This document shows, one piece after another, positions 60,176-63,824 of a DNA stretch of 64,000 nt. The notes under the pieces are model-generated. The model saw nothing but the letters and a program-made list of their open reading frames with translations. It ran no database searches and was not told the origin of the DNA. Both the position numbers and the translations under genes were made by a program. Source of the stretch: Escherichia phage 4MG; sequence record NC_022968.1, one strand, 5' to 3'. Position 1 is the first letter of the stretch. Each line of letters starts with the position of its first letter.

Positions 60176-60257
60176 TGGATGCGTGGATGGGAGTCGAACC
60201 CACAATTTTCGGCTTATGAGGCCAACGTGATCTATATATCCGTTTCACTAACACGCA
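60176..60257 (-). tRNA. tRNA-Met (CAU); could be initiator, elongator or Ile-lysidine type
   Basis: Hand-folded cloverleaf; encoded CCA; T-loop TTCGACT; anticodon loop CTCATAA; 82 nt with 14-nt D-loop. Confidence 0.6.
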
Positions 60258-60263
60258 ATTGTT

Positions 60264-60339
60264 TGGTGGGACCGGGTGGACTCGAACCACCGACCATCTG
60301 CTCTTCAGGCAGGCACTCTACCAACTGAGTTACAATCCC
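60264..60339 (-). tRNA. tRNA-Phe (GAA)
   Basis: 76 nt; encoded CCA; anticodon loop CTGAAGA; 7-bp acceptor with two G-U pairs. Confidence 0.75.
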
Positions 60340-60346
60340 ATAAGAT

Positions 60347-60420
60347 TGGTACTTCCTGGTAGAATCGAACTACCGCAACTGCCGTGTAAAGACAGGGTTC
60401 TACCATTAAACTAAGGAAGC
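60347..60420 (-). tRNA. tRNA-Val (UAC)
   Basis: 74 nt; encoded CCA; anticodon loop TTTACAC; T-loop TTCGATT. Confidence 0.7.
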
Positions 60421-60427
60421 ATTAAGG

Positions 60428-60504
60428 TGGTGGGCGACAGGGGACTCGAACCCCCAAAATTCGGAATCTAAATCCGACACGTATACCAATTCCATCAATC
60501 GCCC
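60428..60504 (-). tRNA. tRNA-Leu (UAG), short variable arm
   Basis: 77 nt; perfect anticodon stem TCGGA/TCCGA; loop TTTAGAT; A73; no long variable arm. Confidence 0.55.
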
Positions 60505-60613
60505 ATAAATGTTTGGAAGCCCATACTGTCTTCCTGATCAGCCAGAATCCTTTTCTAGCATTATCATCGGCCCTGTAGATCCTATCATTAGCCAGGGGAT
60601 CGACGCCTTAATT

Positions 60614-60689
60614 TGGTGGAGCCACTGAGAATCGAACTCAGTTCTACAAGGTGCAAGCCTGTGATTTTATCCAAATAAACTACAGCCCC
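60614..60689 (-). tRNA. tRNA-Ala (UGC)
   Basis: 76 nt; anticodon loop CTTGCAC; G3:U70 identity pair present. Confidence 0.75.
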
Positions 60690-60693
60690 ATGT

Positions 60694-60769
60694 TGGTGCA
60701 AGTACAGGGATTCGAACCCCGATTCTCAGCTTCGTAAACTGATGCTCTGTCCAGTTGAACTATACCTGC
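60694..60769 (-). tRNA. tRNA-Arg (ACG)
   Basis: 76 nt; anticodon loop TTACGAA; perfect acceptor stem. Confidence 0.7.
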
Positions 60770-60775
60770 TAAAAT

Positions 60776-60853
60776 TGGTCGGAGCGGCAGGATTCGAACC
60801 TGCGACCCAGTGCATCCAAGGCACCCACGCTGACCAGACTGCGCTACGCTCCG
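60776..60853 (-). tRNA. tRNA-Pro (UGG)
   Basis: 78 nt; anticodon loop CTTGGAT; perfect acceptor and T stems. Confidence 0.75.
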
Positions 60854-61037
60854 AAGGTGCAGAATTTTAATTATCCCAGATACTGCAACTGGTATCGCTG
60901 GCTAGCTAATTTGATCCGCTCTGGTCACCTCGTGTGACATTGCAGACAGGCTAACCTATTCTGCAAGAGCGTATTGGGTTTGATACGTCGAACTCATTTT
61001 GAGTGCCTTCCGGCAATTTACATCAACATATCAAATT

Positions 61038-61111
61038 TGGCGGGAACTTCCTGACTCGAACAGGAGACAACCGCAGCACAAGCGGCCATTATGCCCCTTA
61101 ACTAAATTCCC
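61038..61111 (-). tRNA. tRNA with anticodon GUG (His-like), atypical C37 and G73
   Basis: 74 nt canonical cloverleaf; anticodon loop TTGTGCT; discriminator G; no G-1. Confidence 0.5.
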
Positions 61112-61115
61112 AATT

Positions 61116-61191
61116 TGGCGGAGATACCGGGCATCGAACCCGGAACATACCCGTGACAGGGGTGTATTTTATCCGTTTAAACTATATCTCC
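61116..61191 (-). tRNA. tRNA-Asp (GUC)
   Basis: 76 nt; anticodon loop CTGTCAC; G73; perfect acceptor. Confidence 0.75.
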
Positions 61192-61196
61192 AAATT

Positions 61197-61285
61197 TGGC
61201 GGTTCCTGAAGGATTCGAACCTTCGTTGTGGATTGCTCCAGGCAGGTTAACAGCCTGCTACCATCGGCCTCTCGGTCAAAGAACC
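61197..61285 (-). tRNA. long-variable-arm tRNA with Asn anticodon GUU
   Basis: 89 nt; all four stems pair; anticodon arm GCAGG-CTGTTAA-CCTGC; 17-nt variable arm with GNRA loop; T-arm GAAGG-TTCGAAT-CCTTC; G73. Confidence 0.55.
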
Positions 61286-61347
61286 ATGTAATTACTTTAT
61301 CAGTCAAAACAACCTTTTGCAAGAATTATTTCAACTTATTTTCAATT

Positions 61348-61450
61348 TGGCGGGATCTGAGGGTTTGCACCTCACCTACGGTCCTGGATGCCCGTCATTC
61401 TGCTCCGCTGGTTGCCGTCGCATTTCCAGCCTCATTAAACTATCGTCCCG
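61348..61450 (-). ncRNA. degenerate tRNA-like element (possible pseudogene or small stable RNA)
   Basis: Same aatttggcggg 3' context as neighbouring tRNAs; T-arm-like TGAGG-TGCAAAC-CCTCA; about 100 nt; no consistent cloverleaf. Confidence 0.3.
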
Positions 61451-61455
61451 TTGTA

Positions 61456-61542
61456 TGGTGGGTCGGGTGGGATTCGAACCCAACGATCCCTCGATTAAAA
61501 GTCGAGTGCCTTAGACATACGTCGCCGCTTGGCTACCAACCC
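61456..61542 (-). tRNA. tRNA-Lys (UUU) with enlarged D region
   Basis: 87 nt; perfect anticodon arm CTCGA-CTTTTAA-TCGAG; 7-bp acceptor; extra mini-hairpin GAC-GTAT-GTC in D-loop region. Confidence 0.45.
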
Positions 61543-61547
61543 ATATT

Positions 61548-61636
61548 TGGAGGAGAGCAACAGAATCGAACTGTCACCGTATCGCTACGATGGGACCGGG
61601 TTCAAACCGGAGTCTGCACCATGCAGCCTGCTCTCC
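61548..61636 (-). tRNA. tRNA-Ser (UGA)
   Basis: 89 nt type II; anticodon loop TTTGAAC; perfect acceptor; long variable arm. Confidence 0.7.
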
Positions 61637-62333: not shown

Positions 62334-62339
62334 CTTATT

Positions 62340-62417
62340 TGGTACTGTCAACGGGATTCGAACCCGTATTTCTCAGATTGAAAGTCTGATGTCCTAGTCC
62401 AATTAGACGATGACAGC
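62340..62417 (-). tRNA. tRNA-Glu (UUC)
   Basis: 78 nt; perfect anticodon stem; loop CTTTCAA. Confidence 0.7.
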
Positions 62418-62424
62418 ATTTGTT

Positions 62425-62498
62425 TGGAGCGGTTAGAGGGAATCGAACCCTACTCTGCGAGGCTTGGAAGGCCTGCGACACACCTTGTGCTTAACCGC
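62425..62498 (-). tRNA. tRNA-Gly (UCC)
   Basis: 74 nt; perfect acceptor; anticodon loop CTTCCAA with 4-bp stem. Confidence 0.55.
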
Positions 62499-62504
62499 TT
62501 AAAT

Positions 62505-62581
62505 TGGTGGGAGTAGCTGGGATTGAACCAGCGACCTCTCGCTTATCGGGCGAGCGCTCTATCCATCTGAGCTATACTCCC
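62505..62581 (-). tRNA. tRNA-Ile (GAU), C33
   Basis: 77 nt; perfect acceptor and anticodon stems; loop CCGATAA; T-loop TTCAATC. Confidence 0.6.
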
Positions 62582-62587
62582 GTTAAT

Positions 62588-62675
62588 TGGTGGGGCGAGT
62601 AGGACTCGAACCTACGAAGGACGCGATGCCAAGGGATTTACAATCCCGCCCGTTTGCCGCTCCGGGAACCGCCCC
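62588..62675 (-). tRNA. tRNA-Tyr (GUA)
   Basis: 88 nt type II; D-arm CCCG-GAGCGGCAAA-CGGG; anticodon loop TTGTAAA; A73. Confidence 0.75.
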
Positions 62676-62677
62676 AA

Positions 62678-63043
62678 TTAACCTTGTTTGAACTGTACGA
62701 TGTCAGTTGAGAAAGGTTTTGCTACTGGTTTATCAGCACCTTTTCCAGAACCATCATCTACGTTCTTTGTTTCTTCTTCGTTTTCGTTATCTTCATCGAA
62801 GTAGTCAGAAAGCATCTGCTTACCTTCTTCAATAACAAAGCGAGCAATATTCTCACGGATGTTGTCTTTAGTATCCTTGTTCATCATAAGATCACGAAGG
62901 ACCATATGAGCATCAGGGATCATAGCAATCATCTTTGTCTTCAGATCAAGAATATTCTTCTCAAGCTGAATTGCGTTAGACTCCTCTTTTAAAGGACGAC
63001 CCTTACCTCTACGACGCTTGGTAAGTGCTTGTTTTGTTGCCAT
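62678..63043 (-). CDS. small acidic protein with N-terminal AT-hook-like basic motif, embedded in tRNA array
   Basis: ATG 63043 (MATKQALTKRRRGKGRP...); 121 aa; own promoter-like element upstream. Confidence 0.5.
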   Translation of the reverse strand: MATKQALTKRRRGKGRPLKEESNAIQLEKNILDLKTKMIAMIPDAHMVLRDLMMNKDTKDNIRENIARFVIEEGKQMLSDYFDEDNENEEETKNVDDGSGKGADKPVAKPFSTDIVQFKQG

Positions 63044-63061
63044 AATTAACCCCACTTATTC

Positions 63062-63090
63062 ATGTTATCAGAGTTCAATATCTCTGTCAA
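63062..63090 (-). promoter_or_regulatory. sigma70-like promoter TTGACA-17-TAACAT for embedded gene
   Basis: Minus-strand -35 at 63085..63090, -10 at 63062..63067. Confidence 0.4.
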
Positions 63091-63129
63091 GGGTTATTTT
63101 ATCACTTATAGCAAAAAATATCAATAACT

Positions 63130-63206
63130 TGGAGCACGGTGTCAGACTCGAACTGACAAATACCTATTTTGCAGACAGGACCGTTAACCAATTCCGGCAA
63201 CCGCGC
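63130..63206 (-). tRNA. tRNA-Cys (GCA)
   Basis: 77 nt; anticodon loop CTGCAAA; perfect T-stem. Confidence 0.7.
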
Positions 63207-63207
63207 T

Positions 63208-63282
63208 TGGTCGAGGCAGTAGGATTCGAACCCACGTAAAGGAGTTTAGAAGACTCCTGCCTATCCTCTAGACTATGCCCCG
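63208..63282 (-). tRNA. tRNA-Arg (UCU)
   Basis: 75 nt; perfect anticodon stem GGAGT/ACTCC; loop CTTCTAA. Confidence 0.7.
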
Positions 63283-63288
63283 TAATTC

Positions 63289-63366
63289 TGGTGCGCCCTC
63301 CCAGACTCGAACTGGGAACCCTGAAGTCTTAAGCCTCATGCCTCTACCAGATTGGACCAAGAGCGC
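63289..63366 (-). tRNA. tRNA-Leu (UAA), short variable arm
   Basis: 78 nt; anticodon arm TGAGG-CTTAAGA-CTTCA; G37; A73; 5-nt variable loop. Confidence 0.55.
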
Positions 63367-63557
63367 AAAACATATTTTAAGCTGCATGGTGACTCCACCG
63401 ACCTCCGATCTCCGCGAACGGCGCTCTACGACCTTAGAACTTCTGTTACAACAACGTGGCCTTTGTCGTTGAAACTCCATTCAGTTAGGCTCATTCTCCA
63501 CACAGATGATCAGTCCGTATATCAAATAATCTGAGCTAATGCACTTTAAAATATGTT

Positions 63558-63667
63558 TGGAGCAGGGTGGTGGAATCTAACCACCTATGTATTCACCCGC
63601 CGCGCCATTGCTGCGAGCTATTTTCAGGTCTGGCTGGACCTCGCGGTTGACAAACCGCCTACCCTGC
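63558..63667 (-). ncRNA. 110-nt tRNA-like structured RNA
   Basis: Encoded CCA; perfect 7-bp acceptor pairing (GCAGGGT/ACCCTGC); T-arm-like GGTGG-TTAGATT-CCACC; D-arm GCGG/CCGC; about 39-nt insertion; sits exactly where a tRNA is expected. Confidence 0.35.
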
Positions 63668-63669
63668 AT

Positions 63670-63743
63670 TGGCTCGCTGAAGTGGATTCGAACCACTGAA
63701 CCCCTTGCGCAGAGGGGGCCTTTACCGCTAAGGCTATCAACGA
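63670..63743 (-). tRNA. tRNA with anticodon-like GCG (identity uncertain)
   Basis: 74 nt; canonical acceptor, D and T arms; anticodon arm CCCCT-CTGCGCA-AGGGG with C37 and 3-nt variable loop. Confidence 0.4.
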
Positions 63744-63749
63744 ATTGTT

Positions 63750-63824
63750 TGGTGCTCCCAGTAGGAATCGAACCCACTTCTTCGGCTTACAAGGCCGCTG
63801 CATCGCCACTTATGCTTTAGGAGC
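63750..63824 (-). tRNA. tRNA-Thr (UGU)
   Basis: 75 nt; anticodon loop CTTGTAA; acceptor with one G-U. Confidence 0.7.

Follow-up and report, generated by a model that had tools for sequence, protein, structure and literature searches.

The 64,000-nucleotide (nt) stretch of Escherichia phage 4MG analysed here (NC_022968.1; hereafter the window) carries a dense array of transfer RNA (tRNA) genes on its minus strand, between positions 60176 and 63824. Our results make it probable that this array is a conserved minimal decoder of the Seunavirus (GAP31/PVP-SE1) type, which makes phage translation robust and in which conserved tRNA derivatives are embedded. Judged by sequence similarity, the phage is a Seunavirus (subfamily Vequintavirinae), and the array corresponds to an already known and annotated feature of these phages.

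We searched the window with ARAGORN, at default settings and at an 80% threshold, and with the Rfam tRNA covariance model RF00005 (gathering score 29 bits). All default ARAGORN calls, 23 minus-strand tRNAs, sit between 60264 and 63824. With standard filters, RF00005 found 20 of ARAGORN's tRNAs at or above its gathering score, and with permissive filters restricted to the region 23 genes reached it (33.7–67.7 bits, E values from 1e-13 to 2e-4). Rfam added Met-CAU (60179–60257) and Lys-UUU (61459–61542), which ARAGORN misses at default settings because their D loops are enlarged. Together, both programs yield 26 tRNA-shaped genes between 60176 and 63824. A first-pass annotation made from the letters alone had folded about 25 cloverleaf genes by hand and named rejection of most of them by covariance models as what would refute the array; RF00005 supports the calls instead, and all 24 listed anticodons, covering the 20 amino acids, were recovered. 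Two genes were found beyond that list, a putative Arg-GCG gene at 63670–63743, which ARAGORN alone called, and at 62264–62333 a gene of 70 nt whose anticodon loop has 6 nt. Most genes encode the 3' CCA, as had been noted: it is present in 24 of 26 and lacking in Ser-GCU (ending in UCC-G) and in the 70-nt gene (ending in CCCCG). The tight spacing of 3–8 nt described earlier is seen in the main, with 0–9 nt in 17 of the 25 intervals, but the other intervals are larger and include spacers of 109–303 nt.

The coverage of 20 amino acids rests on accepting Gly-UCC and on reading CAU as Met. Gly-UCC (62425–62498), whose D arm is small and whose anticodon stem is bulged, is the weakest call: it scores 27.2 bits in Rfam, below the gathering score, and is found by ARAGORN only at the 80% threshold. 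It has G1-C72, C2-G71, G3-C70 and U73, and the GAP31 and PVP-SE1 records annotate a Gly gene in the same slot. Other exceptions to the 23 genes that reach the RF00005 gathering score are Ser-UGA, for which the clan member tRNA-Sec (selenocysteine tRNA) gave the top score (34.1 bits), the 'Arg-GCG' gene and the spacer RNAs S1, S2 and S3 described below. U33 is near-universal in tRNAs, and position 37 is almost always a purine. Anticodon loops that are 7 nt long and have both U33 and purine 37 occur in 19 of the 23 ARAGORN calls and, by inspection, in the Met, Lys and Gly loops. The rule is broken by Ile-GAU (C33), by the genes at 63670–63743 and 61038–61111 (both C37) and by the 70-nt gene with its 6-nt loop.

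To describe the decoding capacity, we counted codons in 58 long open reading frames (ORFs) of the window (17,789 codons) and compared them with 35 annotated E. coli K-12 genes. Each codon box is served by a single tRNA, which has U34 wherever the box has four codons. Under strict wobble rules it reads 47 of the 61 sense codons, or 76.6% of the phage codons. If U34 also reads U (cmo5U-type, as in E. coli), this rises to 53 codons (93.3%), and with four-way U34 wobble to 59 codons (99.8%). No scheme reached all 61 sense codons: AUA and CGG are read under none, and both are depleted relative to E. coli (0.63x and 0.24x). The 'complete isoacceptor set' of the first-pass annotation therefore holds at the level of the 20 amino acids but overstates the array, which, with one tRNA per codon box, is a minimal decoder. 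Near-full reading is reached only with wider U34 wobble. The proposed independence from host tRNA pools is plausible from the decoding reach, though the array would still depend on host enzymes for charging, modification and processing, and several members are atypical in identity features (His without an encoded G at position −1, Ile with C33, two genes with C37, Asn with a Tyr-type body). Relative to the E. coli sample, the phage favours codons ending in A or U (AGA 5.8x, ACA 3.3x, GGA 2.2x, CCA 1.75x). The Watson-Crick cognate codons of 16 out of 22 tRNAs are enriched in phage genes (permutation p = 0.026); AAA (0.66x), GAA (0.81x), UUA (0.61x) and AGC (0.66x) are cognate codons that are depleted.

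The same array is found across a group of related phages. Positions 60000–64000 are 94% identical over 92% to Cronobacter phage GAP31 (NC_019400; Vequintavirinae, Seunavirus), and identity is 84–95% to about 150 further records of phages with hosts in Klebsiella, Salmonella, Cronobacter, Enterobacter and Escherichia. In the equivalent stretch, the GAP31 RefSeq record annotates 24 tRNAs, the same two ORFs and the same flanking genes; past the equivalent of the window's end it has two further tRNAs, Lys-CUU and Met, and a tail-fibre gene. Equivalent arrays are annotated in EC152, PVP-SE1 (NC_016071), FENT2, DP and SPLA5a, and the tRNAs of this phage group were already discussed in the rV5 genome paper (PMC3606486). 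Seunavirus and Mydovirus arrays (GAP31, Salmonella phage PVP-SE1, Enterobacter phages EC152 and FENT2, Klebsiella phage DP) have the locus, the gene order and the two ORFs in common, and they are flanked by the tail-fibre gene on one side and by Gad2-like, spanin and terminase genes on the other; in the window, the locus lies upstream of a 474-residue gene, the spanins, the large terminase and the portal. The slot order is common to six annotated relatives, with cassette-like gains, losses and replacements between loci. Compared with GAP31, the window gains a His-like gene between Pro and Asp as well as the 109-nt spacer S6, and nothing of GAP31's stretch is missing. Its combination of cassettes was seen in no single record. 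Against 5,424 E. coli genomes, blastn matched only tRNA-Pro (77%), so the array tRNAs are old phage genes and not recent host copies; recent capture of host tRNAs was rejected as the origin of the array.

The larger spacers, which the first-pass annotation had set down as non-tRNA sequence, are real, but most hold conserved structured RNAs derived from tRNAs. We numbered them S1 to S6 along the minus strand; S1, S2 and S3 are without annotation in the inspected Seunavirus and Mydovirus records. S2 (63370–63556) is a conserved structured RNA of about 190 nt without CCA and without a match in Rfam. In alignment A2, which combines Seunavirus and Phapecoctavirus sequences, its helices follow the order acceptor stem, D stem, anticodon-like hairpin (invariant loop CUGAUCA), a variable region greatly expanded into two arms, and a T stem closing a 4-nt loop. 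Of 52 pairs, 16 are compensatory, against 1–3 when the partners were slid by 1–3 columns; 98.7% of the cells are paired, a percentage that is inflated because the structure was derived from the same alignment, which does not affect the compensatory contrast. S2 is 93–98% conserved in Seunavirus and about 70% identical in Phapecoctavirus, a genus of another subfamily, where it too lies within a tRNA cluster. Its loop core ACUGAUCAU is invariant in 13 sequences, and the strings TAGCTCAGAT and AGGTCG.TGG are common to S2 and tRNA-Ile genes. We read S2 as a putative giant tRNA-like RNA, which is without annotation in the records listed among 137 matches. Y RNA, 6S RNA, RNase P RNA and tmRNA (transfer-messenger RNA) were rejected as identities, since S2 has no Rfam match and its helices come in the order of a cloverleaf in which the variable region is expanded. 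An exact 14-nt scan of viral contigs with the S2 motif GGTGGAGTCACCAT returned unrelated chance-level loci only, and a stricter two-block pattern gave no contigs beyond the two Seunavirus ones already known. A metagenome scan found S2 in four contigs of the same two phage groups, and no wider distribution.

S1 (63558–63667, minus strand) is a tRNA-like RNA of about 110 nt. Its acceptor stem has 7 base pairs (bp), and its D stem has 6 bp and closes a 4-nt loop. A 6-nt 'anticodon' loop (CAGCCA), a long variable arm, the T loop UUAGAUU and U73 before the CCA end complete the fold. Alignment A1 (10 sequences) contains 23 pairs, 8 of them compensatory and none broken. In Seunavirus, the 6-nt loop reads CAGCCA or CAUCCA, while distant relatives have the 7-nt loops UUUAUAA or UUUUUAA, with UAU or UUU at the anticodon position. 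ARAGORN reports S1 at the 80% threshold, the Rfam tRNA-Sec model matches it weakly (20.1 bits, gathering score 47), and blastn gave no match for it in E. coli genomes. The 6-bp D stem, 4-nt D loop and long variable arm of the A1 consensus are reminiscent of tRNA-Sec and allo-tRNAs. However, the acceptor and T stems are 7/5 instead of 8/5 or 9/4 (tRNA-Sec) or 8/4 or 9/3 (allo-tRNA), and S1 differs from tRNA-Sec also in lacking a UCA anticodon, in its variant T loop and, within Seunavirus, in its 6-nt loop.

Three further genes of the array depart from tRNA rules in their anticodon loops. The gene in slot 2 (63670–63743, minus strand), called Arg(GCG) by ARAGORN and without Rfam match at E ≤ 10, has C37. 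In PVP-SE1, SPLA5a and DP its stems are kept through compensatory changes, and the loops read AAGAUUC, ACAGAUCC or ACGAUA, so that the loop length varies between 6, 7 and 8 nt among relatives. The tRNA-His-like gene (GUG) at 61038–61111 (minus strand; ARAGORN, Rfam 45.6 bits) has the loop UUGUGCU, G73 and no G at position −1; just four phage records match it, at 85–86% identity and with the loop UGGUGCU. The 70-nt gene (62264–62333, minus strand; loop UCGUCA, no CCA) was called 'tRNA-???' by ARAGORN, scored 38 bits in Rfam and is annotated as tRNA-OTHER pseudo in GAP31. Only 11 phage records, from Seunavirus and Mydovirus, contain it at an identity of 97% or higher, in surrounding DNA that is about 84% identical, which suggests a recently exchanged cassette. 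Next, we compared the tabulated anticodon loops with those of E. coli K-12 ileV, hisR and argQ. The loop of E. coli tRNA-Ile (ileV; CUGAUAA) with A37C gives the hairpin loop CUGAUCA of S2, that of tRNA-His (hisR; UUGUGAU) with A37C gives UUGUGCU of the gene at 61038–61111, and that of tRNA-Arg (argQ; ACG, read as ICG; CUACGAA) with A34G and A37C gives the slot-2 loop CUGCGCA. Derivatives with 6-nt loops or C37 loops, and the form of about 190 nt, cannot be ordinary decoders. The canonical phage tRNA-Ile (GAU; 62505–62581, minus strand; loop CCGAUAA) carries C33, as do 14 of 16 copies across related loci, and is the best-scoring gene of the array (ARAGORN; Rfam 67.7 bits). The Lys (CUUUUAA) and Tyr loops are unremarkable.

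S3 (61983–62096, minus strand) consists of a hairpin followed by a non-canonical tRNA-His (GUG) at 61988–62063, whose T loop reads AGCGAUA, whose D loop is atypical and which ends in C73-CCA and encodes no G at position −1. Its minimum free energy (MFE) structure is a cloverleaf, and ARAGORN calls it His at the 80% threshold. The same slot holds a canonical tRNA-His gene in EC152, SPLA5a and locus L010, that is, the two are allelic. With a mean column identity of 93% in seven phages, the call of S3 rests on its cloverleaf, conservation and allelic position, the MFE z-score being no better than that of shuffled sequences. G at position −1 is encoded by E. coli hisR but by no phage tRNA-His, neither by the two in the window nor by the canonical gene of locus L002 (4922–4998), and charging by histidyl-tRNA synthetase is thus uncertain.

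Several decoders also have unusual bodies. tRNA-Asn (GUU; 61197–61285, minus strand; ARAGORN and Rfam) is 89 nt long, with a long variable arm, a class-II shape and G73. In alignment A5, all five helices covary, the extra arm included (24 pairs, 100% paired, 16 compensatory), and the long arm is also found in Phapecoctavirus. In each of 5,426 E. coli genomes, tRNA-Tyr was the best match for it; we therefore regard the gene as having a body of the Tyr type, with G73 and a change in the third anticodon base, and it looks like the product of a Tyr-to-Asn identity switch. Literature searches on long-arm tRNA-Asn gave nothing relevant. Both tRNA-Leu genes are altered in the opposite direction: Leu (UAA; 63289–63366, 78 nt, class-I shape, short variable loop) and Leu (UAG; 60428–60504, 77 nt, 5-nt variable arm), found on the minus strand by ARAGORN and Rfam, are still of the Leu type in their D arm and have A73, but the long variable arm is gone (in comparison with E. 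coli leuT); relatives have ordinary class-II tRNA-Leu genes of 85–89 nt at the same two slots. tRNA-Lys (UUU; 61456–61542, minus strand, 87 nt; Rfam 50.5 bits; Lys in the GAP31 and FENT2 records) has a 10-nt hairpin, GAC-GUAU-GUC, inserted into the D loop. The last gene of the array, a Met-type CAU tRNA of 82 nt (60176–60257, minus strand; Rfam 45 bits), has an enlarged D loop of 14 nt and U73. At lowered ARAGORN thresholds these two are mislabelled as Leu-AAG and Ala-GGC, respectively; the CAU gene is labelled Met in the GAP31, PVP-SE1 and DP records. It resembles initiator tRNAs in U1-A72 and in G2, C3 and G4, but has only two of their three G-C pairs in the anticodon stem, and U11-A24, which is A11-U24 in SPLA5a and FENT2; it may be an elongator, an initiator-like tRNA or Ile2. 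Together with the conserved helices, these alterations of loops and bodies argue for selection on structure and not for decay.

Unusual RNAs and altered loops have precedents in other phages. In phage T4, two stable RNAs with tRNA-like ends, species 1 and 2, whose function is not known, are co-transcribed with the tRNA cluster; S1 and S2 differ from these in being full tRNA-derived folds, S2 a much expanded one. Literature searches on tRNA-like RNAs in phage tRNA clusters yielded nothing relevant. Van den Berg et al. (2023, PMC10264068) described cluster C1 mycobacteriophage and enterobacterial phage tRNAs whose anticodon loops differ from those of the host, and proposed or predicted that these changes confer resistance to VapC, PrrC and colicin-type nucleases. 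The alterations seen here would agree with this published view, in which divergence lets phage tRNAs evade host enzymes that target tRNAs. In the window, by contrast with those tRNAs, the positions changed are near-universal ones, with C33 for U33 in Ile and C37 for A37 in three loops, and some of the carriers cannot decode (6-nt loops and the 190-nt tRNA-like RNA). Phage T5, a virulent enterobacterial phage, likewise has a dense array of more than 20 tRNAs, which rescues translation when defence systems destroy host tRNA-Tyr or tRNA-Lys (PMC11555353). T5 belongs to an unrelated family, and the function of its array was shown experimentally; a like function of the window's array would be a prediction from sequence.

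The other decoders, all on the minus strand, have been called by both ARAGORN and Rfam. The array starts with tRNA-Thr (UGU; 63750–63824; Rfam 54.1 bits). Arg (UCU; 63208–63282) and Cys (GCA; 63130–63206) lie before the first ORF, and after it stand the class-II tRNA-Tyr (GUA; 62588–62675; Rfam 33.7 bits), Ile and Gly (see above), Glu (UUC; 62340–62417), the 70-nt gene, Trp (CCA; 62178–62254) and Gln (UUG; 62097–62172). Ser (GGA; 61890–61982) follows S3. After the second ORF come Ser (GCU; 61637–61729; Rfam 38.8 bits), which has zero spacer to the next gene, and Ser (UGA; 61548–61636), whose Rfam match is the one to tRNA-Sec. The remaining genes are Asp (GUC; 61116–61191), Pro (UGG; 60776–60853), Arg (ACG; 60694–60769), Ala (UGC; 60614–60689), Val (UAC; 60347–60420) and Phe (GAA; 60264–60339).

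Two protein-coding genes lie inside the array, as had been noted. The ORF of 121 residues (62678–63043, minus strand) matches PHROG family phrog_3330 (E = 5e-47), with a basic N-terminus containing an AT-hook-like RGKGRP and an acidic C-terminal tail. Its homologues include GAP31_191 and PVP-SE1 gp081, with relatives in 10 viral contigs and conservation out to rV5-like phages. The second, a Cys-containing ORF of 51 residues (61720–61875, minus strand; phrog_17355, E = 6e-40; GAP31_192), overlaps tRNA-Ser (GCU) with its 3' end. NCBIfam and PADLOC gave no match for either protein or for the 474-residue protein downstream. Ahead of the 121-residue ORF we found a sigma-70-like promoter (63062–63090, minus strand; TTGACA, 17-nt spacer, TAACAT, upstream TG); PVP-SE1 has an annotated promoter in the corresponding position. 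The terminator that had been proposed to bound the array was recovered as an intrinsic terminator at 60105–60132 (minus strand), with an all-GC 7-bp stem at 60132–60115 (GCCCCGC-TCTT-GCGGGGC), followed by the T-run TTTTCTTTTT. The 176-nt leader upstream of tRNA-Thr (63825–64000, minus strand) is 83–98% conserved among relatives, with repeated AAAGTT/GTTCA motifs and a hairpin at 63849–63831; a sigma-70-type promoter was sought in it and none was found. From these elements we infer that the minus strand would be transcribed in at least two units, one from upstream of tRNA-Thr and one from the promoter at 63090–63062, and that transcription would stop at the terminator at 60132–60105. Host RNase P and 3' processing enzymes would then cut the packed precursors, most of which already carry CCA.

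Among the remaining spacers, S4 (61286–61455, minus strand) may contain a degenerate tRNA-like piece of about 105 nt, with a T-arm-like hairpin and a GCCA end, followed by an AT-rich conserved stretch. S4 is 96–98% identical in GAP31-type phages only, its 3' half being conserved more widely. In S5 (60854–61037, minus strand), the 5' 98 nt (60940–61037) form a stable three-way hairpin (z-score −4.7), with patchy conservation. The first 61 nt of S5 are 100% identical to the sequence after tRNA-Asp in another locus, L012. S6, the 109-nt spacer cassette (60505–60613, minus strand), is present in PVP-SE1 and SPLA5a and absent from GAP31. The single-sequence MFE z-scores of S3, S4, S6 and the 3' half of S5 did not differ from those of shuffled sequences, and we therefore claim no structure for S4 and S6.

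The 474-residue gene next to the array (58640–60064, minus strand) starts 41 nt downstream of the T-run of the terminator and is labelled 'hypothetical' in the annotated relatives inspected. Precomputed Pfam matches assign PF26128 (Gad2) to a 99%-identical protein and to all 57 homologues; our local Pfam copy, which apparently lacks the PF26128 model, returned only noise for the protein and its homologues. The protein has the invariant motifs GG..DxD (G38, G39, D52, D54) and D201-F-T-I-N205. Its AlphaFold2 model (mean predicted local distance difference test score, pLDDT, 82.7) gave as top Foldseek matches 3aqm, 3h3a, 5hc9 and 1miv, that is, E. coli poly(A) polymerase (PAP I) and class II CCA-adding enzymes (E values from 6e-5 to 1e-3, template modelling (TM) scores only about 0.3). 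These data indicate a predicted nucleotidyltransferase. We rejected a bona fide CCA-adding enzyme, since only the fold and motifs A and B are shared, the protein and its profile found no match among PDB sequences and the base-selecting motif is absent; the Pfam label Gad2 appears to fit better. Gad2, Gabija anti-defence 2, has a predicted nucleotidyltransferase domain and is known from phage SPbetaL7; anti-Gabija activity was shown for Bacillus phage and Brevibacillus prophage members only. The 474-residue protein agrees with Gad2 in Pfam assignment and predicted fold, but its implied homology to the tested Bacillus and Brevibacillus proteins is just distant, and anti-Gabija activity of proteobacterial phage members would be a prediction. 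A Gad2-like homologue of 33% identity keeps the order tRNA array, Gad2-like gene, terminase. By contrast, a distant homologue in an unrelated phage contig (L147, 4913–7170) directly follows an RNA ligase gene (PF09414) and has no tRNAs nearby. We therefore treat the link between Gad2 and array as synteny within one lineage and not as demonstrated functional coupling.

How might such an array serve the phage? If the array did nothing but compensate for codon usage, supplying tRNAs for phage-preferred codons with the odd tRNA-like genes as irrelevant by-products, the enrichment of AGA, ACA, GGA and CCA, whose cognate tRNAs are present, and the bias in 16 of the 22 cognates would be expected, and compensation has already been argued for rV5 (PMC3606486). 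We consider this reading possible but doubtful, since the array also reads codons that are not enriched or are depleted (AAA, GAA, UUA, AGC) and the single-codon Met and Trp, since compensation needs less than a full one-per-box set and since it leaves the structurally conserved, non-decoding tRNA-like RNAs unexplained. The almost complete decoding set and the near-identical arrays in phages from Cronobacter, Enterobacter, Escherichia, Salmonella and Klebsiella could point to host-range insurance, a self-sufficient decoder for enterobacterial genera with differing tRNA pools. Its benefit is unclear, however, because these genera resemble one another in tRNA pools and codon usage, and we think this explanation unlikely. 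In the preferred reading, a conserved minimal decoder for robust translation, the tRNAs of the array would most likely sustain phage translation when those of the host are ill-matched to A/U-ending codons, depleted or cleaved. Several points weigh against this reading. The codon-usage signal is modest and largely a general preference for A or T endings (GC content 47% in the window versus 52% in the E. coli sample), the 35 K-12 genes of that sample are not from the true host, and four-way U34 wobble is an assumption, while strict wobble leaves 23% of the phage codons without an array tRNA. His without G at position −1 and Ile with C33 lack canonical identity elements and may be poorly charged.

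Defence by the host offers another explanation, which we regard as possible though not as the favoured one: the array may primarily replace host tRNAs destroyed by anticodon nucleases and related effectors, through phage tRNAs with bodies and loops that evade recognition, with the C37 and 6-nt-loop RNAs as decoys or inhibitors, and form an anti-defence island together with the Gad2-family gene that adjoins it. The tRNAs of T5 protect against retron-Eco7 and PrrC, and experimental precedents for T5, T1 and T7 (PMC11555353) are joined by bioinformatic ones (PMC10264068). The phage tRNAs of the window are very divergent from those of the host, with C33 in Ile, C37 in two genes, three host loops with A37C and enlarged D loops in tRNA-Lys and tRNA-Met, and the accessory cassettes are patchy yet nearly identical, as would be expected of counter-defence cargo. 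Moreover, tRNAs for all the known nuclease targets (Tyr, Lys, Arg, His, Asn and Asp) are present in the array. But no nuclease is known against tRNA-Ile (GAU) loops in these hosts, the Lys and Tyr loops, known targets of PrrC, PARIS and retron-Eco7, are unremarkable, and the Gad2 link amounts to synteny in one phage lineage with a distant homologue away from tRNAs. Under the preferred reading as well, RNAs with 6-nt loops, C37 or a length of about 190 nt might serve as decoys, or as substitutes that resist nucleases, towards factors recognising the anticodon loops of host tRNAs; that the C37 and 6-nt-loop RNAs have such a role is conjecture, which also counts against the preferred reading. Could S1, S2, S3, slot 2, the 70-nt gene and the C37 His gene simply be decaying, functionless tRNAs? 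Several of them score poorly or not at all with tRNA models, GAP31 labels the 70-nt gene pseudo, and S4 and S6 show no structural signal. Yet compensatory substitutions keep the helices in two phage subfamilies with almost no broken pairs, S3 is 93% conserved and the S2 loop ACUGAUCAU invariant in 13 sequences. Decay is disfavoured by covariation for S1, S2 and slot 2, and as a general account it is very improbable. Codon matching and counter-defence both occur in other phages (PMC11555353, PMC10264068), and either may weigh more heavily here.

As a tentative extension, which we rate as rather doubtful, the RNAs of S1, S2, slot 2, the 70-nt gene and the C37 His-like gene may be non-decoding mimics that act as decoys or uncleavable competitive inhibitors of host factors binding tRNA anticodon loops, a form of RNA-based counter-defence beyond the re-supply of tRNAs. 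The basis for this lies in their loops, copies of the host Ile (GAU), His and Arg (ICG) loops with C37, C33-type or length changes; candidate targets would be anticodon nucleases, acetyltransferase toxins and modification enzymes. If this were true, the array and the Gad2-family enzyme next door would form an anti-defence island, and the Tyr-bodied tRNA-Asn and arm-less tRNA-Leu would be body-swapped tRNAs that evade recognition of the host body.

The array itself is ordinary for its group and adds one more case to the debate on codon matching versus counter-defence. Its possible weight lies in the unannotated, covariation-supported RNAs derived from tRNAs and in the systematic breaks of near-universal tRNA rules. 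Of the structured RNA genes in such arrays, about one in four is missed or mislabelled by standard tRNA annotation. Because the phages can be grown on E. coli, Salmonella, Cronobacter and Klebsiella, these RNAs and rule breaks may offer experimental handles on the question whether tRNA mimics act against tRNA-targeting immunity.

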